Source: an uncultured virus (IMG/VR IMGVR_UViG_3300001335_000606) (taxonomy: Duplodnaviria > Heunggongvirae > Uroviricota > Caudoviricetes). Taken from it: a stretch of DNA of 60,376 nt. Positions 1,485 to 56,304 of the stretch are shown here, in pieces. How positions within the stretch are numbered: position 1 is the first letter of the stretch; every line of letters begins with the position of its first letter. Under the pieces are notes generated by a model that was not told where the DNA came from, did no database searches, and saw nothing but the letters and a program-made list of their open reading frames with translations. The stretch is taken from IMG/VR virus record IMGVR_UViG_3300001335_000606; one strand, given 5' to 3'. Both the position numbers and the translations under genes were made by a program.

Positions 1485-1718
1485 TTAATCGTTTAAAATC
1501 ATTTTTTGATATGGCTTGCTTTTAATATTCTCATTAATAAATGTCCCCTTTGATGGAGCACTAATTAGATCCTTCCATTCTTTTTCTGTAACATTGTCGT
1601 AACGATACTGATTTCCACCTTTGTATTCAACAATAAGCTCTTGCTTTTCTGTGGAATACCAAAGTGTTTGAATGTGAGATGATTCAAATGAATCAAATTT
1701 TTCAAATGTTGTTTCCAT
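1485..1718 (-). CDS. KTSC domain protein (no TAG codons)
   Basis: SSHIQTLWYS..LIVEYKGGNQYRYDNV..LISAPSKGTFINENIK pattern; AGGAG SD. Confidence 0.85.
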   Translation of the reverse strand: METTFEKFDSFESSHIQTLWYSTEKQELIVEYKGGNQYRYDNVTEKEWKDLISAPSKGTFINENIKSKPYQKMILND

Positions 1719-3758: not shown

Positions 3759-3860
3759 TATTATAATATTATTATTATATATATATTATTATATATTATT
3801 AATTAATTATATATATATTAATATAAGTAATACATTATATATAATATATTATATTATTTA
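3758..3860. other. Almost pure A/T intergenic tract
   Basis: About 100 nt containing only two G/C bases, built from TAT/ATA units. Confidence 0.8.
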
Positions 3861-3874
3861 GGAACTTAAAACGC

Positions 3875-7444: not shown

Positions 7445-9367
7445 ATGGATTATAAAATATATAATTTGAAAAATAAATCGTAGTTTCTTTATATACCTAA
7501 AGCCGGAAAACCTGATAATGAAGTCAGAGATTATGATAAGCTTTCCCCCAAATGGTTAAATTAGTAGTACGAAGATTTAAAAAATTTTTATATACCTAAA
7601 TCTGGAAAACCTGATAATGATGTCAGAGATTATGATAAGCTTTCGCCAAAATGGTTGAATTAGTAGTATAAAAATTTAAAAAATTTTTATATACCTAAAT
7701 CTGGAAAACCTGATAATGAAGTTAGGGAGTATGATAAGATTTCACCAAGATGGTTGAATTAGTAGTATGAAGATTTAAAGAATTTTTATATACCTAAAGC
7801 CGGAAAACCTGATAATGAAATTAAGGATTATGATAATTTTTCACCATATGAATGGATGCCATATAATGATTCTTTAGATGCTTATTTGAAAAACTTATAG
7901 GCAAGATTGATATATCATCGTCTTCCTGGAAAGAAAACTACTAAAGAATATAAAAGCATGTAGTCGGCGTTAAGAAGAATTATTGATGATGATTATATTT
8001 TAGATAAGGAATATATACCTAAAGCAAAAAGTAATGAAGAGGGCAAGCCTCGTATTGGAATGCTAGATCCCATTGGAATATGGTCTGAAACAAACAATTA
8101 TAAATCATATCATTTTGAATTCTCCAATACTTTAGGTCAACCTGCAGGCTCTTTTGCAGATCATGTTATGTATTTCAATCCGTTGGATAGGTCATATATT
8201 CCATACACTTGGTTACCTAGAATTGAAATAAACAAAGATGCAGCATCTTCTTATCCTGATGTTAAGATCAATGCTCCACTTCCTATACAACTTTTAACAG
8301 ATAAGATATATTAGGGTGTAAACTATGTCTAGGACAAAGCATAGAATCTAGCTAACAAGGCTAAAGCAGCAGTATCTAAACTTAAATACGCTTTAAAATT
8401 ATCTGATGAATAGGACAAACATAAATTCTCTAATGCTCCGTCTTGGGCTACATATTACGGAGTTTATAAAAACAAAACTAAATATAAGAGAAAATTAACA
8501 TTATTTGGTTCTAATATTTCATTATTAGGTAATGTTAATGACAAAATTGTTGTTAATGACCCTTTGTCCTATCAAGCTTAGTCCTACATGTCTTATTTGT
8601 ATGATGTTTCAGATCCTAAACAAAAAAATATTATTGCAAATGAGAATAGACCACAACAATTTTCTTATGATTAGGGTAATATTATAAAATTTTGGATTTA
8701 GGATGCAAATAATTAGTTGATAATGACAACACCTGCTTTCTTAACAAATCTTGAAGATCAAGGATTATCTGGTGAGTGGGATGAATTTAAATATGTTGGT
8801 GCTACTTATCCAAAGTTCCAATACAAGGGTTCAACAAAAAGAACAATTAAATTTGATTTAAAAATAGGTTGTTTTGAGAAAAAATATATAAGAGCATATT
8901 TATAGAAGTTAAATTTTTTAAGATTAGTAGGTACTCCTTCTTATAAAGAGGTTTATTTTACAAGATAGGATTTAGGTGATACTTAGTAGACCTTTCCTGT
9001 ATTATATCCAAGAGCTCCTTTATACAAATTAACCTTAGGTGATATAATTAGAGATACGTATGGGTATTTTGAATCTTGTGATTTAACTTGGAGTGATGAA
9101 GAAGCAACTTGGAATTTGGATAAAAAGAAGATTTTGAAAGGATTAACATTAGAAGGTGGCAGGAATTTCCAAGATATGGAAGATTCCAGAACAGACGGAA
9201 TTGGTTAGTAGCAATGGATAGGAGATGACAATCTGAATAATATATAGTTCCCTATAGTAACAAGTGTTGCTTGTACTTTTGTTTGTATGTATGGATTAGG
9301 GTTTACAAATACAATAGATAGAAGCAATTATCAAAACTTTATTTATAAGCCTACGGAGAGTTAGTAA
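7445..9367 (+). CDS. Baseplate / tail-tube initiator-like protein with N-terminal 33-aa repeats
   Basis: 640 aa by read-through; C-terminal PAFLTNLED..WDEFKYVG..YKGSTKRTIKFDLKI..PLYKLTLGD pattern; follows tape measure gene. Confidence 0.6.
7490..7846 (+). repeat. Coding tandem repeat, 99-bp period, ~3.6 copies
   Basis: Units start at 7490, 7589, 7688, 7787; consensus YIPK(A/S)GKPDNEVRDYDKLSPKWLN**YEDLKNF. Confidence 0.9.
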
Positions 9368-22213: not shown

Positions 22214-22425
22214 GTATAATGGTGCATATAGATGATTCAATTAATTTGGAATTAATTGGGCAAAGATTTTTGTGGTATATGACTAAAAAATATGTTCTGT
22301 TTTAGACACCTTCTGTTTATACCAAAAAGATGATATAGAAATGTCTAAATTAGGTATTGGATATGGAATTTAATGTAAGATTGAGTGAGAATAAGATTAC
22401 ATATAGGGGGATAGGGCAGAAATGA
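22210..22425 (+). CDS. Small hypothetical protein
   Basis: ATGA overlaps at both ends. Confidence 0.55.
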
Positions 22426-24194
22426 ATGATTTTCAGATTGAAATTTGGAAAAACAATTATAAAGCACCTAAAGATGAGACCATTTAGGATACATTTTTAA
22501 GAGTATCCAAAGCTGTCGCATCAGTGGAAAAGGATTAGGAATCAAGAAAAGTCAGTTAGGATTTGTTTTTTAAGGCGTTATCAGAATGGAAGTTTATTCC
22601 AGGCGGTAGAATTATTGCGAATGCAGGAGTAGGCAAGAGAGATAAAGCGACCTTGTATAATTGCTATGTCTATCATCCTTATGATTTCGGAATAAAAGAT
22701 ATAGATAGCATGGATGGTATTTTTTAGTCCTTAAAAACTTCTGCTAAAATATTAGCAAGTTAGGGAGGATTAGGCATTAATGCAACATTTATTAGACCTA
22801 ATGGTAGCTATATTAGGGGAACAGGTGCAAGGACTCCAGGCGTTTTAAAGTTTTTAGAACTTTGGGATAAAGCAAGTTAGGTTATTACGATGGGTTCTAA
22901 TAAGGTTATGAAAGACAAATATTCAGATGTACAGAAGAAAAAAATAAGAAAAGGTGCGCAAATTGCCGTCTTGGATATTTCGCATTCCGAAATCAAGGAT
23001 TTTATCACCGTAAAACAAACTTCTAATAGATTAACTAAATTCAATCTATCTGTTCTTATTCCGGATAGATTTATGAATGCTGTCAAAAATGACGAAATGT
23101 GGAAACTTTGTTTTCCCGACGTAGATTATTAGAAGTATAAATAGGAATGGGATGGGGATTTAGAAAATTGGATAGTTAAAGATAAACCTATTGTAGTAAC
23201 GGAAGAACTACCTGCCAGAGAATTATGGGATTTGATTATGGTTTCTACATATAACCGAAATTAGCCAGGCGTGTTGTTTTATGATACCATTAATCAATTA
23301 AACCCTGTTAGTTATTGTTAGAATATATTGACCACGAACCCTTGCGGAGAAATAGCTATGCCGTCTAATGTTTGCAATTTGGGTTCTCTAAATCTTGTTA
23401 AGTTTTATAAAGATGGAGAATTTGATTGGAAGGAATTTGAACAAATAATAAAAATTGGTGTCTGTTTTCTAGATAATGTGTCAGATTTTTCTTATGTCCC
23501 AATTAAACAATATTAGAAAAAAATTCTGGAGAAGCGTAGAATTGGATTAGGAATAATGGGTCTAAGCTCCCTATTAATGATGATGGGATTACGATTTGGT
23601 TCACCTTAGGCCATAGAATTTGTAGATAAACTCTTTAAATTTAAGTGTGAAACTTAGTTACTTACATCAGCATTTTTGGGTAAAATCAGAGGATCATTTA
23701 AATCATTTGATGATGAAAAATATTTTTCCACACTTTGGTGGTTTGATTTGCCCATTTCCTATAGAGTCAAAAGATAGATTTAGAATTTAGGTACCATGCG
23801 TAATAGCGTTCACGCCAGTGTGGCTCCCACGGGGAATTGTGTTGTTGGTTCTACAAGGATAATGACATAGGAAGGTGTTTTGTCTATTAAAAAGATTGCA
23901 GAATAGAATCGTGTGTTTAAATCAAAAAACAAAAAACAATGGTTCATCCCTATTAAATCTTTGCGTGTGTATACTTTAAATGGCTTAAAGAGAATTGTTG
24001 GAATTTATAATAACGATGTTACAAATAATTGTTCCATAACAACGGAAACTGGAAAAAAAATAATTGGGACAAATTAGCATAAGATATTGATTAAAATAAA
24101 TGATAAACAAGCTATTTGGAAGAAATTGTCAGAATTGAAAATTGGAGAAAAAATATTGGTTAAAAAGAAAGTGGAGGAAGTGTTCAATGAATGA
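22422..24194 (+). CDS. nrdJ: Class II ribonucleotide reductase, N-terminal part, fused to split-intein N-fragment
   Basis: FIPGGRIIANAG, LYNCYV, N*PGVLF, TTNPCGEI, CNLGSLNL, RRIGLGIMG, SVAPTGN then intein block A; ends TGA. Confidence 0.92.
23838..24191 (+). mobile_element. Split intein N-fragment (118 aa) of NrdJ
   Basis: Starts CVVGSTRIMT; block B GTN*HKIL; LSELKIGEKI; basic tail then TGA. Confidence 0.88.
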
Positions 24195-25506
24195 AGTTGT
24201 GAACATTAATATTAATGATTTTGATTAGGAAATTATAATGAATATATATCTTAAGAAGAAACATACCTACGACATATAGGTTTAGGATGCACATCATTAT
24301 ATTTTGGAAAATGGAATTGTCAGCCATAATTCTTCTATATTCGCTGGCCAGGTATCAAATGGTATTGAACCTGTATTTATGAAGGAATATACTCGTTGGG
24401 TCGTAATGACGGATTAGTAGAAGCAATCACTGTAGTAGAGACATTATTCTATATAGTATGAAAGTAAACCAGATAGTGTTTAGGTTTAGGAACAGTAGTA
24501 TCAAAAAATTCCCAATCCTCAATTGGGATAGTGGTGGTAGACTTGTGTATTTAAATTTGCTGAAAGAGGTAATGAACAAATCCTTAGGGGAGAAATTGAC
24601 GGTGTCATCTATGAAATTGATAAAAATCGTGGATTAATTAAACCTATGTAGGTTATGGATTATGGATGGAAATATGTTAAAGAACATTAGTTGAATGATT
24701 CGGGTGTAGTTTAGATTACCGATTTAAGTGTTGATGACCATATAAATATGTTAGCAACTTCCGCTAAATACATTAATCAAAATCAATCTAAAACTATTAA
24801 TATTCCCAAGGATTACAAGTATTAGGATTTCAAGGAAGTCTATTTTAAAGCATGGTAGAAGAAAATTAAGGGTGTTACAACATATAGAGATGGAACAATG
24901 ACTGCTGTAATTTAGAAAAAAAGTAAAAATAAACACAATGCCAGAGAATTAGAATAGTTGTTTACAGAGAAGAATGGTACCGTAATTTTAAGTGATGTCA
25001 AAATTCCTGATGTTTCCTACGCTTTGCAATATAAAATTAAAGATAAATATAAGAAAAAATGGTATTTCACTCTTTCATTTGCAGACAAAAGTTTAACCAA
25101 ACCATTTGCTTTGTTTATTAGAACAAATAATAGATAGTCTACTTAGGTCACGGATTTAGTAATTAAAGCCATGGAAGATTTGTTGTTGGCTAAAGGAATT
25201 AAGGAATAGTTAATATTGGAGCAAAAAGAAAAATATTCTAACCAAACAAATGTTGATAAGATTGGTAGAGCTATAGGTATGGCGTTGCGTCATAATATTC
25301 CTATCGTTGATATTGTTGAAACATTAGAAAAATACAGTGATGGACTTTCTACCTTGATATTTCATATTAAAAAGGTTTTATCTGAATATATTAAAGATGG
25401 AACACGAATTGAAAATAGAACATGCTCACAATGTGGAAGTGAAAGTTTGGTTTATCAAGGGGGTTGTGTTACTTGCATAAATTGCGGAAATTCAAAATGT
25501 ACTTAA
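24187..25506 (+). CDS. nrdJ: Split-intein C-fragment (48 aa) fused to NrdJ C-terminal part
   Basis: Own GGAGG SD and ATG in a different frame; TYDI*V*DAHHYILENGIVSHN followed by SSIFAGQVSNGIEPVF, SKTINIP, KGVTTYRDG, terminal Zn-ribbon with GNSKC. Confidence 0.92.
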
Positions 25507-25514
25507 AAAAAAGC

Positions 25515-25542
25515 TTTTCTTTTTTTAAAAACGGGTTATAAT
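25515..25542 (+). promoter_or_regulatory. Putative early promoter (T-tract + GGTTATAAT)
   Basis: TTTTCTTTTTTTAAAAACGGGTTATAAT directly ahead of a TAG-free three-gene cluster. Confidence 0.7.
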
Positions 25543-25575
25543 ATAATAAAGAGGTTATATAACAAGGAGTTAAAA

Positions 25576-25863
25576 ATGAAAAAAGTTGCAGACACCCACT
25601 ATCGTCCCTTTCACTTGAAGAAGGCGAGCAAAAACCGAGGCTGGATCGGGCACACTTACATGATTTCAGATGGTCAATGGGAAAGGCTGAAAGACAAGCC
25701 ATATGCTTCCAAGTGGGCAATTTCCAGCATCGGTGCTGGTTATAATTGTGTCTTCCGCAATATCCGCAGAATGACCTTTGCAGAAATCGAAGACGGACTT
25801 GAGTATGGCCTCCCCGAGGAAGCCAGAGAGGAATATTACAAAGCAGGATGGGAAAGAGCATGA
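25576..25863 (+). CDS. Hypothetical protein, TAG-free
   Basis: AAGGAG SD; intact in the standard code; higher GC than flanks. Confidence 0.8.
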   Translation: MKKVADTHYRPFHLKKASKNRGWIGHTYMISDGQWERLKDKPYASKWAISSIGAGYNCVFRNIRRMTFAEIEDGLEYGLPEEAREEYYKAGWERA

Positions 25864-26102
25864 AATTCAATGAGAAAGAAGACATTTGGCCATATTTTGG
25901 AGATACGTATAAGGTATATGTTCCAAAAGCTTTAATAACCGAATTTGAAGATTGGGCGAAGAAGAACAAAATAGATATTAAAATTTCGGCAACATATAAT
26001 TATAGTCATAGAAAAAACTTTGTCGCCAGAGATTATATAGTTCATAAAGATCATAAAACTTTGATTAAAAGATGGCTTAAGAAATCTTATAAAGGAATTT
26101 AA
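25860..26102 (+). CDS. Hypothetical protein, TAG-free
   Basis: ATGA overlap with upstream gene; ends TAA. Confidence 0.75.
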   Translation: MKFNEKEDIWPYFGDTYKVYVPKALITEFEDWAKKNKIDIKISATYNYSHRKNFVARDYIVHKDHKTLIKRWLKKSYKGI

Positions 26103-26106
26103 ACAT

Positions 26107-26889
26107 ATGGCAAATAGATTAAACCCAAGTAATTCAACAAAATCCCTAATAAACAAGTGCAACCCCTTATCCGAAGAAGAAGTAAGAGTATGGCTTGAAG
26201 AATATATGAGGAAAAAATCCCAAAAAGCAGCGACAGCTTTGCTCAATAGTGTTACAAAGATTTTTGCCTCGGAAATTTATAAAAACGAACGAAAATTTCT
26301 TAAAACGATTCCAGATGCTACCTTTGATGATATTTTTAACGAGATGGCACTTATGTTTCTTAAGGGTTTAAGTCAAAATAAGTTTGATCCCGACAAATCC
26401 AAACTAGACACTTGGGCATATTGGGCCGTAATGCCTCTAGTTAGAAATCCTGTAAGGGTTATGGGTAGCAAATTTGCAAGCAGCCATACCCATGTGGACA
26501 TAAACAAACCTCATGGGCAAGATGGCGGTACTATAGCTAATGTGTTGCCTGATACATCTGTAGATTTAGAAAAGGATTACGAAGCAGGAGAAAAGCACAG
26601 AGAACTACAAAAGGCTATAAGTAAACTTAATCGCAAAGATCAAGAAATTATTAAAAGCCTATTTGGTTTCATTCCTGTTAAAAAAGATTGGCAATCCAAA
26701 ACTGGTAAGATAAATGCAAGTTCCATAGCCAGAGGAGAAGGTGTTTCGCCTAATCTTATGAGAAAGAGAATTGCGGATATTTTGCAACAACTTCGTAAAG
26801 AATTGAAATAGTCAAAGTTCGATAGATATTTTTAGTTGGGTTTATTAATATAGAGATATAGTAAAGTAAGGTTTGTTAAAAATATATAA
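26107..26889 (+). CDS. Sigma-70 family RNA polymerase sigma factor (234 aa to first TAG; 260 aa with read-through)
   Basis: Region 2-like DDIFNEMALMFLK..KFDPDKSKLDTWAYW; region 4-like ISKLNRKDQEIIKSLFG..SSIARGEGVSPNLMRKR..ILQQLR. Confidence 0.8.
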
Positions 26890-26900
26890 AAGGAGTATCC

Positions 26901-27638
26901 ATGAATAGAAATTAGTTGTCTTTATACAAATTATATGAAGAGTTGTACAAAAAGTTAATAGCTGGGGAATTTGTTATTGACAAAACAGGAAAGAAGATTA
27001 TTTAGTTGCTGGGAGTAACATTTGCACTAGATCCTTTGTTAGGTCATCATATTAAAATTGTTAATCCTACAACAGGATATGTTTTTAGAGAAACAAATTA
27101 GGAATATGTTGAGCAAGAAACAGCTTGGCATGAAAGTCAAGAATTGAATATAGAAATGGTTAATCATGTTAAAATATGGCAATACTGTTCTGGTGATAAT
27201 GGTTAGATTAATTCTAATTATGGTTGGTGTTGCTATAGCCCTGAAAATGGTTCGGAAGGTAAATCTCAATTTCAACATGCATTAGAAGCATTGAAACAAG
27301 AAAGAGAATCTAGAAGGGCAATGCTTATTTATACCCGACCCACTATGCACTCCGATTACAAGTAGAATGGGAAAAATGATTTTATTTGCACTACTTGGAA
27401 CCAATTCTTTATAAGGGATAACAAGTTATATATGTTTTATGTTATGAGGTCTAATGATGGTTACTTTGGGACTATTAATAACATCCCTTGGGCTATGTAT
27501 GTTTACAATGACATGTATAACCAGTTATTGGAAACTTATCCTGAATTGTTAGTCGGAGACATTATGTGGTTTGCGTCAAGTTGGCATTTATATGAACCGC
27601 AATTTAAGAAACTTAGAAAGTTATTTGAGAAATCATAA
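26901..27638 (+). CDS. Thymidylate-synthase-fold enzyme, T4 gp42-like dNMP hydroxymethylase family
   Basis: G*INSNYGW, SRRAMLIYTRPTMH, DFICT (catalytic Cys), MRSNDGYFGTINN, SWHLYE. Confidence 0.85.
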
Positions 27639-28879: not shown

Positions 28880-30622
28880 ATGGAAGTTTCAAGAATTTCC
28901 ACCTTTATTAAAAATGGTAGAGATTATATAAGAATATTTGGTTATAATTAGAACGGATAGCCTGTAAGGAAACTTACACCAGTTCAGAATTATATTTTTG
29001 TTGAAGAGAAAGATTTAAAGAAATTAGGAAAATCCGTATAGATTCAGACAGAATAGTATATATCCTATGATAATCATATAAGTTCGAAAAAATTACGTAA
29101 GGTTATTCTTAAAGGTGCCAGAACCTCTTTTGTACCAAAACCATTGCAAAAAATAAGTTATCAAAGTGATATATCATTAGAAACTAAATATATGCTAGAC
29201 GAGGGCTTGGAATTTTCACGTAAAAGACATATAGCCTTCTATGATATTGAAACTTATTACGATTTTGAAAATGATCCTGAAAGCAACAGTGTAGATCGTG
29301 CCGATTCCCCTATTACATCTATTGCATTTTATTCCAATTTATTAAAAACATATTTCATTTTAGCGTGGCATCCTTCTATAGAAACTGGTGATGATCCGTT
29401 TATTATTGAATAGAAAGGTGATAAGCAATTCTATTATTGTGATTCAGAAGCTACCGTGATTCAAACCTTTTGTGAATTAATAAAAGTTCTAAATGTAGAT
29501 ATCATTACAGGGTGGTTTTCGCATGGATACGATTTACCTTACATTTTGAAGCGTTGTGAAAAACTTTTTGGTTCCATGAATTTAATATCCCCTCTTGAAA
29601 ATGTTTGGATGGGTAATAGAAAGTTTGGGGATGAATACAAGATTAGAATTTCTGGATTAGATACTGTAGATATGATGCAAGGGGTCGGGAAGTTTAATTA
29701 TAAATTGCAAAATAACAAACTCGATACCGCAGCGGAAATGATTTTGGGTTAGAAACATAAAAAATTAAAAACTGCAACATGGCGAGATTGGGAAGATAAT
29801 TTTCAGGGGTTCTTGAAATATGTTGCGAGAGATGTAGAAATCTTGCAATTAATAGACAAAAAACTCAAGGTTTTCGAATTTCTTGTGCAATAGCAAATCC
29901 TTTCAGGAATAACTTCTTTAACTGATATTATGTCTGTTACCCGCCTGATAGATGCTTTATTGATAAAAAGATATTGGGGAGTATATGTGTTTCCTAATAA
30001 CTTAAGAGCTGAACGAGTTAATTTTATGGGAGCAATAACAATAACACCTAAATAGCCTGGAGTTCATCAAAATGTAGCTGTTATGGATTATGCTTCTCTT
30101 TATCCAACTACTATTATGTCTTATAACATTAGTCCTGAGACATTTTTATTTTCAAAGACACAATTAGGTGAAGAAGAATTTGAAAAGCAACTTAAATTTT
30201 TGCAGAAGAACGATATAAAGTATATAGATACGGGTTAGTCTGATTAGATGTTTGGAAAGCGTTACATATTTTTATCTCATGATTAGCATGCAGGAGTTTT
30301 ACCCGAAATCTCCCGTGAACTATATTTGATGCGTAAGGATTTGAAAAGAGAAGCTAAAAAAGGTAAAACTGCTGATTAGAGATTAGTAGCGGATAAAAAA
30401 CAATATGCTATCAAAATAATTCTTAATAGTATATATGGAGCCACAGGGTTTGCTCAATTTAGATTATTTGTTCCTGAATGTGCCGATGCGATAACTTTTT
30501 GGGGCAGAACTGCTGTTAAATTTGCTATGAATAATCTAGATCCTTATGGCAAGGTACTCTACGGTGACACTGACAGTGTTGGATAGAACAGTAATATTAG
30601 ATATAGAATTAAGCAAAAATAA
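28880..30622 (+). CDS. polB: Family B DNA polymerase, N-terminal part, ending in a 15-aa split-intein N-fragment
   Basis: Exo I FYDIET, Exo II GWFSHGYDLPYI, motif A MDYASLYPT, motif B KIILNSIYG, motif C YGDTD then SVG*NSNIRYRIKQK-TAA. Confidence 0.93.
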
Positions 30623-30636
30623 TATGATGTGTTTTG

Positions 30637-30690
30637 AATTGTCTCAGTAATTAGTATTAAGACACTACGGTGTTCCCATAGGAGACAATT
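30637..30690 (+). promoter_or_regulatory. RNA hairpin occluding the SD of the endonuclease gene
   Basis: AATTGTCTC (30637-45) is the exact reverse complement of GAGACAATT (30682-90); inner GACAC-TACG-GTGTT hairpin. Confidence 0.7.
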
Positions 30691-31671
30691 ATGAAAGAAT
30701 ATGTAATTTGCAAATAGTGTGGAAAGAAATTTAAACAGATCACTCACAAACACACTAAAGTTCATGGATTGACCACTAAGCAATATTGTTAGAAATATAA
30801 CTTAAATCCCGGTTAGCTATTATCTGATTCTACAAGATAGAAATCTAAAGTAACTTTGTAGAATATGATGTTATTGTATGGGTAGGAAGAAGGAACAAAA
30901 AGGTTTAAGGAATACAGAAATAAACAAGCTTACACCAATTCTTTAGAATACAAGAAATAGAAATATGGTTGGACTGAAGAATAGTTTAATGAATATAACA
31001 AGGGAAGAGCTGTAACATTATAGTTATCCATTAAACGCCATGGATTATAGAAGGGAACTAAATTGTTTTAGGAATATTGTAATAAACAAGCTTATGCTGG
31101 TTGCAAAATATAGTATTTTATCTAGAAATATGGAAAGATTGAAGGATAGAAAATATTTAAATAGATCGGTAAGCAAAAAGCTATAACATTAGAAAATATG
31201 ATTAGGGTTCATGGGTAGAAATTAGGAAAATAGGTTTATTACAAATGGTTGGGAAAACAATCTAAAACAGGATTTGGAAAGTCTAAAATTTCTCAATAGT
31301 GTTTTAAAGAAATCTCTAGATTATTGTATAGAAATGATTTAAAATTTCGTGAAAACGGAGGGGAAAAGTATTTCTATATTGATGGAAAAGTTTATTATGT
31401 TGATTTATATGACCCATTAACAGGAAAGGTTATTGAATTTTATGGTTCATATTGGCATGCAGATCCCAAATCATATACTCCTAAAGATGTTGTTAATTAT
31501 CCATCGGATATAAAATTATTGGCTTAGAATATATGGCAGAAAGATTAGAAAAGGATAAACATATTGAAAGAAAACACAGATGTTATTTAGGTGTTGGTTA
31601 TTTGGGAAAATGATTATATTAATAACAAGGCAGAAGTTGTAAAGAACTGCATTTAGTTTTTAAGGAGATAA
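30691..31671 (+). CDS. Free-standing homing endonuclease, Vsr/DUF559-like, with N-terminal Zn finger
   Basis: CK*CGKKFKQITHKHTKVH, KYG..EG repeats, VDLYD..KVIEFYGSYWHADP, IWQKD, VLVIWENDY; sits between the polB halves. Confidence 0.82.
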
Positions 31672-31672
31672 A

Positions 31673-32887
31673 ATGACAATTAATAGTTGCACTATCAAGT
31701 GCTTGTTTGACACAATGGCTAAAGAGATTTTTGTTACTTAGGATAACAGATATATTGGAACTCTACCAAATATAGAATTAGAGTATTATGATGAAATAGT
31801 AGGTTAGGTTAAATGGGGCTAGGTTGAATTTATTTAGAAGCATTTTATTGATAAACCTATGTTCAAGATATCATTTAAAAGTGGTGATTATGTTGAAATT
31901 ACAGAAGATCATTCTTTAGTTGTTAAAAGAGATAATAAATTGATATAGACAAAAGTCTATTAGCTTTAGAATGGTGATTAGTTTTTCACGATTAATGGAT
32001 GGGTAGAAATTGAAACTATAGTTCCATTAGAAAGACATGCTAATTGGGTTTATGATATTCAAATGAAAGATAATCCTCATACCTTTTTTGCGCACGGCGT
32101 TTTAGTTCACAATTCTGTATTTTTAAAACTTTCCAAATCAAAATAGGATACTATAAAATTTCTGGAAATATTCAATAAAGAGATTTTATTAAATGGCTTG
32201 ATAAAAAAGTTCAATCCTTTTGTTAATATTGATTATTTTCTTTATGAATTATAGTATTAGAAAGATTTGGATTATATTTATTTCAGTGATAGAAAGAAGC
32301 GATATTATGCTATTGAAAATACAGGAGAGAAGTATGTTCATGGATTGAATATTATCCATAAGGACACTCCAAAATTTATAAAGGAACTATTGGATTAGTT
32401 ATGCGAAAAAGCGGTAAAGAATGGAATAGTTTTAGAAGATTTGAAGGAAACTTTTTAGAAACTTAAAACAGCTGATTACAAAAATATTGCTGTTCATAAA
32501 ACCTTTACAAAAAAGTTTTCCCAATATAATAAAATGATTCCTCAACATGTTGCTGGTGCTTTATACGCAAATTAGCATTTAAATTTGAAGATTAAGCATT
32601 CGGATGTGGTATTTCTTTTTTACATAAATTCCTTTTGCGAACCTGATATAAAAGTTAAAGATAGAAAAAATGTTATTTGTTTAAGAGAATAGGATTTTGG
32701 TGTAATTAAGGAGAGTGGAAAATTTGAAATAGATTATGTCCAGTTAATGGAAAAACAAATTATTCAACCTCTTCGTGAATTTGATAAAATACCTATTGTA
32801 GAACAAACCATAAACGAATGGTGCAAATTAATGGAAGATAATTATAGATTTTCCAAAATTAAAGGTTATGTATTTAAGAAGAGGTGA
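31673..32887 (+). CDS. polB: Split-intein C-fragment (147 aa) fused to PolB C-terminal part
   Basis: AAGGAG SD; block B VEITEDHSL, block F/G WVYDIQM..FFAHGVLVHN then SVF; L*Y*K, KKRYY, PQHVAGA. Confidence 0.92.
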
Positions 32888-37057: not shown

Positions 37058-37414
37058 ATGGAAGAAAAAAACGACGAAATTTACCCTTACAACTATTGCC
37101 CAGATTGCGGTCAACTCAAAATGAAAACAGATTAGGAACATAATTATGTATGCGAAAATTGTGGTGCTAGATATTCCATTGATGATTATCTATTGTCTTG
37201 GGAATTGTTTCAAAAGGAACTTTTGCTTTAGCTCATTGAAGAATTTGTCTAGCCTGGTTATGGAAAATGTATATCCTATAATAATGCAAATTATATTGTG
37301 GGTTTTGATTCAGAAGGTCAGTTAGTAATAGAACCTTATCAACTTCAATAGGGTGAAGAAGAAGGAATGTGGGTTCGTATAAGTTTAGAAAGTGAAAATC
37401 TTTAGGAGGAATAA
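37058..37414 (+). CDS. Zn-ribbon hypothetical protein
   Basis: CPDCG..CENCG. Confidence 0.7.
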
Positions 37415-37668
37415 TGGCAGGTATATCAAAATACTATATTGCTACCGTAAAATATATGGTGGAAGAAATGTCAAAAACAGGGAAAACATCCTTTAAAAGC
37501 AGAAGGGATGATTATTTAATCAATGCAGAATCAATAACGGCGGCAGAAACTACCTTAAATGGTTTATTGGGCGGTGTCTATGATAATTTTGAAATTGTAG
37601 GCATTAGAGAAAGTTCGATTGTCGGTGTTATAAACGAAGTAAAGGACGTATTTAAGGAAACAGAATAA
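37414..37668 (+). CDS. DUF4494-like protein, TAG-free
   Basis: YYIATVKY..YLINAESITAAE..FEIVGIRESSI; AGGAGG SD. Confidence 0.65.
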   Translation: MAGISKYYIATVKYMVEEMSKTGKTSFKSRRDDYLINAESITAAETTLNGLLGGVYDNFEIVGIRESSIVGVINEVKDVFKETE

Positions 37669-54051: not shown

Positions 54052-54348
54052 ATGTCTATTTTAGTTAAAAAAACGCAATAGTATTTGCAATAGTTGATTC
54101 ATAAGCAACACTATCTAGAAGTTAGGTTAAACGCTTTGTTTTCTAAATATTTGCTGTTTAAACCCACTATTTCTACAAGAGAAAATGATGAACCTGTTTC
54201 TATTATTAGGAATGAATTCCCCTTTATTTGCAAATTGTGTTCTGAAAAGTTTTCTGATGGTGCAGAATTCACAGAACATTTGATTAATAATCACCCAGAA
54301 ATTTTAGAGCAACCATTGTAGGAACTGGAATTAGATTTACCAAAATAA
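54052..54348 (+). CDS. C2H2 zinc-finger protein
   Basis: FICKLCSEKFSDGAEFTEHLINNH; GAGG SD. Confidence 0.75.
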
Positions 54349-55398: not shown

Positions 55399-55410
55399 AC
55401 TTTTTCACAA

Positions 55411-55434
55411 CTTTTTTTATATTTTGGTTATAAT
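55411..55434 (+). promoter_or_regulatory. Putative early promoter (T-tract + GGTTATAAT)
   Basis: CTTTTTTTATATTTTGGTTATAAT ahead of second TAG-free cluster. Confidence 0.7.
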
Positions 55435-55465
55435 AAAAGCGTGAATAAAAGAGAGGTTACAAAAA

Positions 55466-55789
55466 ATGAAAGTTTACACCACACTACCTAAACCCGAAGA
55501 TTTGAACGAGGGAGAATATAAAGTTCTTCTTGCTTGTGCAAAAAACATCGATCATAACACGGGGATCGAATTTGGTTATGCTGATGAAGTGAAGGTTGAA
55601 GGACTTTCGAAGCACCAGATTGCGGGATATATTTCTCAGCTTTCTCAGAAGCGTTACATCACTATCGACGATGAATGTCAGCAGATGTCCTTTATGGACA
55701 AATCGGTTCTTCAGTTCGATAATCATGGGTTCTTGACTGTTCATAATTATACCAGAAAAGAACTTCTTGAAGGAAAGAGAGGTTGGTAA
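55466..55789 (+). CDS. Putative winged-helix DNA-binding protein, TAG-free
   Basis: LNEGEYKVL..GLSKHQIAGYISQLSQKRYITI. Confidence 0.75.
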   Translation: MKVYTTLPKPEDLNEGEYKVLLACAKNIDHNTGIEFGYADEVKVEGLSKHQIAGYISQLSQKRYITIDDECQQMSFMDKSVLQFDNHGFLTVHNYTRKELLEGKRGW

Positions 55790-56304
55790 TGAACGAAGTA
55801 AGACCTTATACATTGGTAGAAAAAACTTCCAAACCATACTTTCCAAAATTGGAAGGTGGCTTGTATATGGGATCCATTAAAATTGATACTGAAAAAATGG
55901 AAAATCGCAAATATGATCTGTATAGTTTTTCTTATGGATTGGTTGTTTGCTTTGGTGAAATTTGGGATACCTTTTGTGGTATACAGCATTGGGATCATCC
56001 CGCAATGTGGGAAGCCATCAAGAGAGCGGTTGACCGTGGAATTATAACTCCCGATATGAATGTTTTTCAATTAGTACCGCCACTTAAAGAAATGTCAGAA
56101 GGAGGTAAGTTTGATGTGGAACCTCCACTTATGGGGTTCTTTAATACAATCCCTTGTCTCTGGGACATTGTTACTGGAGATGTTGATGATCCTACCGTGC
56201 TTATTACAGAAGTTCCTTCTGAAAATGTAGTGGAGGTTATCGATGGGTATTACAGGAATGGAATAAATGTTTGGGGAATAGCAAGGGAAAGGGAGAAAAT
56301 ATGA
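55789..56304 (+). CDS. Hypothetical protein, TAG-free
   Basis: TAATG overlap; intact in standard code. Confidence 0.8.
   Translation: MNEVRPYTLVEKTSKPYFPKLEGGLYMGSIKIDTEKMENRKYDLYSFSYGLVVCFGEIWDTFCGIQHWDHPAMWEAIKRAVDRGIITPDMNVFQLVPPLKEMSEGGKFDVEPPLMGFFNTIPCLWDIVTGDVDDPTVLITEVPSENVVEVIDGYYRNGINVWGIAREREKI

Follow-up and report, generated by a model that had tools for sequence, protein, structure and literature searches.

The 60,376-nucleotide DNA of an uncultured virus of the Caudoviricetes (IMG/VR record IMGVR_UViG_3300001335_000606; "the window" below means this whole stretch) belongs to a phage clade in which sequence comparisons indicate that the codon TAG is read as glutamate (Glu), and it contains an island of three consecutive genes on the plus strand, at 25576 to 26808, from which TAG is absent. 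The third of these genes encodes a predicted sigma-70-family transcription factor in which TAG is unevenly placed: the core of the protein, from sigma2 to sigma4, has none in the window or in four related lineages, whereas the short C-terminal tail carries TAG in all five. The explanation preferred here, in which slightly more belief than doubt is placed, is that the sigma core has been kept free of TAG for synthesis before TAG is decoded, the first gene of the island lacking TAG as an import.

Reading of TAG in the Phage Clade

When only TAA and TGA are taken as stops, the window resolves into dense, long open reading frames (ORFs), almost all of them on the plus strand, and TAG is present in 67 of the 73 genes (92%); replication genes are among these, as an initial annotation of this DNA had stated. 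Outside the island, 698 of 18761 codons are TAG (3.72%), equal to 41.5% of TAG, GAA and GAG combined. The meaning of TAG was assessed from alignments of 19 protein families, each comparing the window with as many as seven related loci. The residues facing TAG in these families were mostly Glu (E 1032, D 251, K 238, Q 193), and the 167 columns in which the other sequences agree had Glu as consensus in 113 cases and glutamine (Gln) in 10, which bears out the earlier assignment of TAG to Glu. In GroEL, TAG falls at Glu residues invariant in four solved homologs (in the motifs IELED, AEDVEGEAL and AAVEEG) and at one invariant Gln. In TAG-free genes, GAA and GAG together account for 8.2% of codons, versus 5.1% elsewhere, where TAG adds 3.8%; the share of Gln codons is alike in the two sets (2.5% in TAG-free genes versus 3.0% in the remaining genes). 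Two related loci with close sigma genes, L003 and L004, swap TAG for Glu codons at 8 of 8 sites. On these comparisons TAG is read as glutamate in this phage clade; a reading as Gln was dropped, since the aligned columns, codon shares and sigma-gene comparisons favour Glu. A search of the available literature found no report of TAG as Glu in phages and no report of sigma factors in recoded phages. Three public proteins (P0006, P0008 and P0011), near-identical to the loci L003, L011 and L013, show Gln at 9 of 9 positions where the DNA has TAG, and the public protein set has thus translated the clade with TAG as Gln.

The window phage is a member of an uncultured clade; the nearest cultured phage, by recombinase, shares 38.5% identity, and the sigma protein had no match among 50,697 phage records. 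Bases 25400-27000 (1601 bases) are identical in contigs of four runs from two studies, the runs being labelled aquatic or freshwater metagenome, so the island is not the artefact of a single assembly. ARAGORN detected no tRNA in the 60-kb window or in 12 related loci, and Rfam gave no match in the window. Along genes, the share of TAG among Glu codons is 0.47-0.53 over the first three tenths and drops to 0.36-0.37 over the final two; a falling share would be expected if early TAGs block translation before a switch of code.

An Island Without TAG

The island comprises the ORFs 25576-25863, 25860-26102 and 26107-26808 (95 + 80 + 234 = 409 codons), whose 28 Glu codons are 23 GAA and 5 GAG, with no TAG. 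Its flanks are rich in TAG: upstream, the C-terminal part of ribonucleotide reductase (RNR) has 23 in 454 codons, and downstream, thymidylate synthase (ThyA) has 5 in 245. The initial annotation had described three consecutive TAG-free genes of about 410 codons and about 28 Glu, set between genes that use TAG freely, and in these respects it was accurate. It had also proposed a significance test for the absence of TAG, and the absence proved to lie beyond chance: the probability of no TAG in the island is 1.8e-7 if every codon is counted and 3.0e-7 if the 28 Glu sites alone are. That such a TAG-free stretch might simply be expected somewhere in 60 kb is an idea to which the small genes, taken singly, lend some colour (P = 0.027 for the first and 0.048 for the second), but the sigma core by itself gives 2.6e-4 over 15 Glu sites, the TAG-free run across the island extends for 511 codons, against 357 for the next longest in the window and 180 for the third, and the pattern recurs in four further lineages; chance is accordingly given next to no credence. 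Two antisense ORFs (25469-25969 and 25932-26246) had no family match and were taken as spurious.

The Sigma Factor: Core and Tail

The third gene (26107..26808, plus strand; 234 codons, 15 Glu, no TAG), hereafter gene 3, is identified by profile matches and a structural model as encoding a sigma-70-family factor. Its product matched NCBIfam TIGR02937 with 44.8 bits (cut-off 42.9; E = 9.9e-12) and, weakly, sigma families in PHROGs (1.2e-5 and 7.1e-5); the window protein itself had no Pfam match at E <= 0.01. A full HMMER search brought together a small family of 24 proteins at E <= 0.001, 12 of them reaching E <= 1e-10, and among 13 family members compared with Pfam at E <= 1, nine matched Sigma70_r2, five r4 and three r4_2, with best E values of 2.5e-5, 3.8e-4 and 1.3e-6, respectively. 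The AlphaFold2 (AF2) model (predicted local distance difference test, pLDDT, 77) consists of two helical domains joined by a disordered linker, corresponding to sigma2 at about residues 1-122, a linker at 123-156 and sigma4 at about 157-235; a Foldseek search of this model returned 35 matches in the PDB at E <= 0.001, these being sigma-70-family factors, nearly all from RNA polymerase complexes. The composition of the gene is native, with a GC content at third codon positions (GC3) at z = 0.8.

Members of the sigma family run past the position of the window TAG at 26809 into a conserved tail (S-x-F-D-x-Y-F...L-I-x-x-Y). In the window this tail occupies 26809..26889 on the plus strand (26 codons), is reached only if TAG encodes an amino acid, and contains in-frame TAGs at 26809-26811, 26833-26835 and 26851-26853 before a TAA stop at 26887-26889. 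Because the tail is conserved and in frame, the sigma gene ends at 26889 and not at the TAG at 26809; the initial annotation, which had closed the island at 26811, was thus right that the core is TAG-free (to 26808) and short of the true end of the third gene. Of the 260 codons of the full gene, none of the first 234 is TAG and three of the last 26 are. Within the tail, Glu and TAG interchange in aligned columns among close relatives (L003 versus L004), and the model places a helix at residues 242-252 with low confidence. As a positional control, 31 other genes of at least 240 codons were inspected, among which the latest first TAG was at codon 64; given such early first TAGs, together with the higher TAG share at gene starts, the pattern of the sigma core and tail is opposite to the trend of the genome.

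The comparison with relatives rests on a metagenome scan with the sigma family alignment, which yielded 14 related loci in 8 lineages (9 with the window). Earlier forms of the search gave little: an IMG/VR scan with the single sigma protein found no match, a metagenome scan with a 2-sequence alignment found none either, and the sole match of a scan with the family alignment (L001) was dropped as a local 37-column match with an hhalign probability of 49%. All 14 loci are recoded, with TAG at 1.1-4.2% of codons (the two lowest values come from contigs under 2 kb), and all 14 are syntenic, with the order RNR, small gene, sigma, ThyA, dUTPase, small TAG-rich gene and family B DNA polymerase (PolB); the orthologs of gene 2 and the sigma gene share 34-52% identity across the 9 lineages. 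Sigma cores without TAG are found in five lineages, with TAG versus GAA or GAG counts of 0/15 in the window, 0/14 in L002, 0/18 in L003/12/15, 0/16 in L006/7 and 0/21 in L011 (P from 1.4e-3 to 5e-7 against the TAG share of each locus), and in the tails of these same five lineages the counts are 3/0, 2/0, 1/3, 1/3 and 1/1. When the five are pooled, TAG occupies 0 of 84 Glu sites in the cores versus 8 of 15 in the tails (Fisher P = 3.8e-8).

Genes 1 and 2

The island is of mixed origin, gene 1 being foreign in composition, and gene 2 and the sigma gene native. Gene 1 (25576..25863, plus strand; 95 codons, 9 Glu as GAA or GAG, no TAG, TGA stop) is preceded by a Shine-Dalgarno sequence, AAGGAG, read at 25564..25569 on the same strand. 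Its GC content, which the initial annotation had correctly called higher, is 0.472 versus a mean of 0.312 for genes of the window, and its GC3 of 0.505 (z = 5.0) is the highest of the 73 genes. A word-index protein search of 5.8 billion clusters returned the self-match alone, Pfam, PHROGs and NCBIfam contained no family for it, and an Atlas search gave no usable structural lead. The gene is missing at the orthologous site in every relative, where the promoter stands directly before gene 2. This foreign composition and this absence argue that gene 1 is probably a recent insertion between promoter and gene 2; foreign origin would then be the simplest account of its lack of TAG, and recent horizontal acquisition, which the initial annotation had set against its own proposal, is what gene 1 appears to display. 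The high GC also raised the idea that gene 1 is a structured RNA, which was rejected after Rfam gave no match. Within the gene, at 25724-25746, a GC-rich hairpin (CCAGCA-TCGG-TGCTGG) leads into a second perfect GGTTATAAT; this internal copy has no upstream T-run and may be an internal promoter or a coincidence. In two related loci (L008 65-1141 and L009 60-884), GC-rich (0.45-0.47), TAG-free genes lie upstream of the sigma gene, the one in L009 being a DUF285 repeat protein (1.3e-29); they resemble imported cargo at a spot matching that of window gene 1.

Gene 2 (25860..26102, plus strand; 80 codons, 4 Glu, no TAG, TAA stop) lies directly upstream of the sigma gene, and its start was set by its homologs and by an ATGA overlap with the stop of gene 1. 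Homologs were recognized through synteny in L002, L004, L006, L011, L012 and L013 (32-45% identity), the word-index protein search having returned the self-match alone. Counts of TAG over seven lineages are 0, 1, 0, 0, 0, 2 and 5, the gene being TAG-free in four of the seven, and its depletion is weaker than that of the sigma core. The AF2 model (pLDDT 91) is a small beta-alpha-beta-beta-alpha domain that had no PDB match at E <= 0.001 with Foldseek, and that retrieved from the Atlas generic ACT-like look-alikes alone (template modelling (TM) score about 0.66). Composition at third positions is native (GC3 z = 0.3).

These data bear on the proposal that the whole island is a recent import from a donor with the standard code, in which TAG has not yet been gained. 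Gene 1 suits this proposal in its GC content, its GC3, its lack of homologs and its absence from the site in all relatives, as do the other GC-rich, TAG-free genes in the same neighbourhood of L008 and L009 (one of them the DUF285 gene); gene 2 and the sigma gene, however, have native composition and syntenic orthologs in all 9 lineages, and neutral gain of TAG after import would not give 8 TAGs in tails versus none at 84 core Glu sites. With native composition and old orthology, import cannot explain the pattern of the sigma gene, and for the island as a whole it is already contradicted by the core and tail counts and by the native composition; it is rated improbable.

Promoter and Operon

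A promoter-like motif at 25520..25542 (plus strand) consists of a run of seven T, 8 bases and GGTTATAAT, with a perfect -10 and no canonical -35 element, and it ends 33 nt before the ATG of gene 1. A search for the composite motif (T5+ N4-12 GTTATAAT) found seven distinct sites in the window versus a mean of 0.49 in shuffled sequence; six of the seven are intergenic, and in five the distance from the end of the motif to a start codon is 29-33 nt. The motif stands ahead of three TAG-free genes, namely 1485-1718 (minus strand), gene 1 and 55466-55789. It recurs at the orthologous site, ahead of the homolog of gene 2, in L002, L004, L006, L011 and L012; it was not found at that site in L013, and the L008 group has different genes upstream. 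A generic sigma-70 scan listed no site before gene 1 and returned 12 sites versus 16.1 expected from shuffles. The strong promoter of the initial annotation therefore survives as a motif with seven copies in the window and conservation in five relatives, but not as a site of the generic type; by sequence, it is real and conserved and not private to TAG-free genes. When other intergenic regions were searched for a second, sigma-dependent motif, AT-rich words alone were found.

ThyA (26901..27638, plus strand; 5 TAG; Pfam PF00303 at 1.1e-12) has its own AAGGAG and starts 11 nt after the sigma stop, with the same gene order in relatives; the island thus forms the 5' portion of an operon that is longer and carries TAG.

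Proposed Explanation and Its Alternatives

In the preferred explanation, the island would open, next to the promoter, an operon for nucleotide metabolism and replication in a phage clade with TAG as Glu; RNR comes first in the order, followed by the promoter, gene 1, gene 2, sigma, ThyA, dUTPase and PolB. Gene 1 would lack TAG on account of a foreign donor or a too-recent arrival. Selection would keep the core from sigma2 to sigma4 without TAG, such that a complete DNA- and polymerase-binding protein could be made while TAG still terminates, the synthesis of the sigma core taking place before, or independent of, the phage TAG decoder; the C-terminal tail would be dispensable and the sole part to tolerate TAG. 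The sigma factor would then redirect host RNA polymerase onto phage genes. The sequences show the recoding itself, the Glu reading of TAG, the identity of the sigma factor, the contrast between its core and tail and the conservation of the promoter; termination at TAG in the host, early expression of the operon and phage targets for sigma-directed transcription are suppositions of this account. If TAG does terminate, the five lineages with TAG-free cores would yield a complete sigma4, whereas the other four would stop near codon 24. Selection against premature termination would be expected to leave just such an abrupt limit where sigma4 ends, as the five lineages show, and it would mean that sigma is made while TAG still stops, a state that is read here as the start of infection, following the published model.

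The initial annotation had proposed that all three genes are translated before the code switch; the counts for sigma core and tail fit that proposal, but gene 1 is probably a foreign import, and avoidance of TAG is not universal. It had further suggested that the genes may include effectors of the switch, such as an antagonist of release factor 1 (RF1), which was not borne out: gene 3 is a predicted sigma-70-family factor, and no tRNA, release-factor or synthetase signal was detected in the island by ARAGORN, Rfam, Pfam, PHROGs or NCBIfam. To judge from sequence, nothing in the island resembles decoding machinery, and its single identifiable product would act on transcription; that gene 1 or gene 2 is a release-factor antagonist of novel fold is possible.

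Several observations weigh against the preferred explanation. The sigma cores of four lineages carry TAG (TAG versus GAA or GAG counts of 5/10 in L004, 2/12 in L005, 10/5 in L008/9/10 and 6/13 in L013/14), so that four of the nine lineages have TAG at roughly the background level, and about half of the lineages appear to have lost the constraint on the sigma core. Two database relatives (P0002 and P0005) probably carry core TAGs as well, because they have Gln at conserved Glu columns and Gln corresponded to TAG at 9 of 9 sites in the near-identical pairs. Gene 2 contains TAG in 3 of 7 lineages. The promoter motif also heads the TAG-bearing genes for SSB (6 TAG) and PolB (13 TAG) and that at 54052 (3 TAG), and TAG-bearing ThyA is apparently on the same transcript as the island; with a shared promoter, and with the 5 TAGs of ThyA right after sigma, temporal separation would have to act at translation. 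A suppressor tRNA, moreover, needs no translation, and no protein is strictly required before the switch. Finally, by analogy, a phage with 92% of its genes recoded resembles phages whose hosts are themselves recoded.

The last of these points leads to the idea that there is no temporal switch, and that TAG is decoded throughout, by the host or by an instant decoder, but inefficiently, so that its avoidance would reflect efficiency or accuracy, as with rare codons. Besides the 92% of genes with TAG, which is like the figure for phages of natively recoded hosts in the available text of Borges et al. (10.1101/2021.08.26.457843), the variation of TAG avoidance in sigma by lineage and the presence of TAG-bearing genes under the same class of promoter speak for this idea. 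An effect of codon efficiency, however, would not give a boundary exactly at the end of sigma4 with a tail at or above the background share of TAG; structural genes that are likely abundant still use TAG (1.4-2.5% of codons); and imported genes (gene 1 and the DUF285 gene of L009) have no TAG, which suggests that their donors do not use it as a sense codon. Constant but inefficient decoding is consequently held to be unlikely.

Comparison with Known Systems

Alternatively coded phages have been described in which early genes are compatible with the standard code, and the share of recoded genes is given as 26-71% in phages of standard-code hosts and about 90% in phages of recoded hosts, as far as the available portion of the report goes (Borges et al., 10.1101/2021.08.26.457843). 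As in those phages, a minority of the window genes have no reassigned stop, the reason proposed being the unmodified translation of the host before the switch. Unlike in the phages covered by that portion, TAG is here Glu rather than Gln, and unlike in those of standard-code hosts, 92% of genes rather than 26-71% are recoded; the conserved code-neutral gene is a predicted sigma factor, of which the core alone is neutral and whose state varies among sister lineages. The same portion of the report describes a "code change module" in Jade-phage, comprising a suppressor tRNA, tryptophanyl-tRNA synthetase (TrpRS) and RF1 in the standard code (10.1101/2021.08.26.457843). The island is similarly a compact, standard-code operon inside a recoded genome; unlike the module as described there, it is without tRNA, synthetase or release factor, and its known member is predicted to act on transcription.

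Phage sigma factors that lend themselves to comparison include gp28, T4 gp55 and phiEco32 gp36. In Bacillus phage SPO1, according to the part of the source that was available, a phage sigma factor is produced from early genes transcribed by the host (PMC13401047). The window protein is like SPO1-type phage sigmas in being a predicted sigma2 and sigma4 protein encoded among early or replication genes, with a presumed hand-over of polymerase to later promoters; unlike them, it is without a detectable sequence relative among the phage records searched. We know of no phage sigma factor that has been tied to a change of genetic code.

Programmed read-through is known to produce C-terminal extensions, as in the A1 protein of Q-beta. 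As with A1, one gene would here have two predicted products, a short one ending at a stop and a longer one made once the stop is read as an amino acid; unlike with A1, a switch of code across the whole genome in the course of infection, rather than low-level leakiness, would fix the ratio of the two. A more elaborate proposal is that the sigma gene is at once trigger and sensor of the code change, its conserved tail altering or shutting off activity after the switch. Under the host code, the gene would yield a 234-residue sigma that drives phage promoters, among them perhaps the one for the tRNA that decodes TAG; after TAG has come to mean Glu, the same mRNA would give the 260-residue form, amounting to a timer within the genetic code, and the sister lineages with TAG-free or TAG-normal cores would be two alternative wirings of the circuit. 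This proposal is regarded as unlikely.

The idea that early genes are compatible with the standard code is already known; what is new is that TAG stands for Glu, that recoding is nearly total, that the conserved gene left code-neutral is a sigma factor, and that its core and tail are split in a way that predicts two isoforms. Which genes must precede the switch in recoded phages has mostly been guessed from annotation, and the present clade offers an internal test at the level of sequence, in which the core of a regulator excludes TAG, the tail admits it, and sister lineages appear to have lost the constraint. A transcription factor, and not a translation factor, would thereby be singled out as the product most in need of code-independent synthesis, and the two predicted sigma isoforms would be detectable by proteomics or by a simple expression experiment.

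Other Features of the Window

Further genes of the window encode baseplate and tail-fibre proteins, an SSB-like protein, a UvsX-like recombinase, a DnaB-like helicase and GroEL, along with an intein-bearing RNR, thymidylate synthase, dUTPase and the family B DNA polymerase. The RNR region (22422-25506) has an intein-like insert, which matches Intein_splicing, and appears in the gene calls as a pair of overlapping ORFs. In the DNA polymerase B gene (within 28880-32887), a 333-codon ORF intervenes after the first 580 or so codons, and the gene continues from 31673.

A second TAG-free island at 55399-56304 consists of two ORFs (107 + 173 codons) with 24 Glu and no TAG, the 357-codon run lying at 55466-56304; both ORFs have raised GC (0.395 and 0.381), neither matches any family, and a motif of T-run and GGTTATAAT at 55412-55434 precedes them. 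On the minus strand, at 1485-1773, a TAG-free, 77-codon KTSC-domain gene (PF13619, 4.7e-17) stands behind the motif, which lies in the divergent region 1719-1838. Another TAG-free gene, of 84 codons, occupies 37414-37668; it has a weak DUF4494 match, and its homologs in L011, L012 and L013 are 45-49% identical to it. In L013 (6118-6585) and L014 (11217-11684), a 155-codon gene with 19 Glu, no TAG and no Pfam match lies two genes downstream of the TAG-bearing sigma gene.

Elsewhere in the window, a 116-base intergenic stretch at 3759-3874, nearly pure A/T with TATATA-type words, lies 5' of a 1184-codon tape-measure-like gene. The 640-codon protein encoded at 7445-9367 opens with four tandem units of about 36 residues, each of the form YIPK.GKPDN.V.DYD..SP.WLN followed by two TAG codons and Y.

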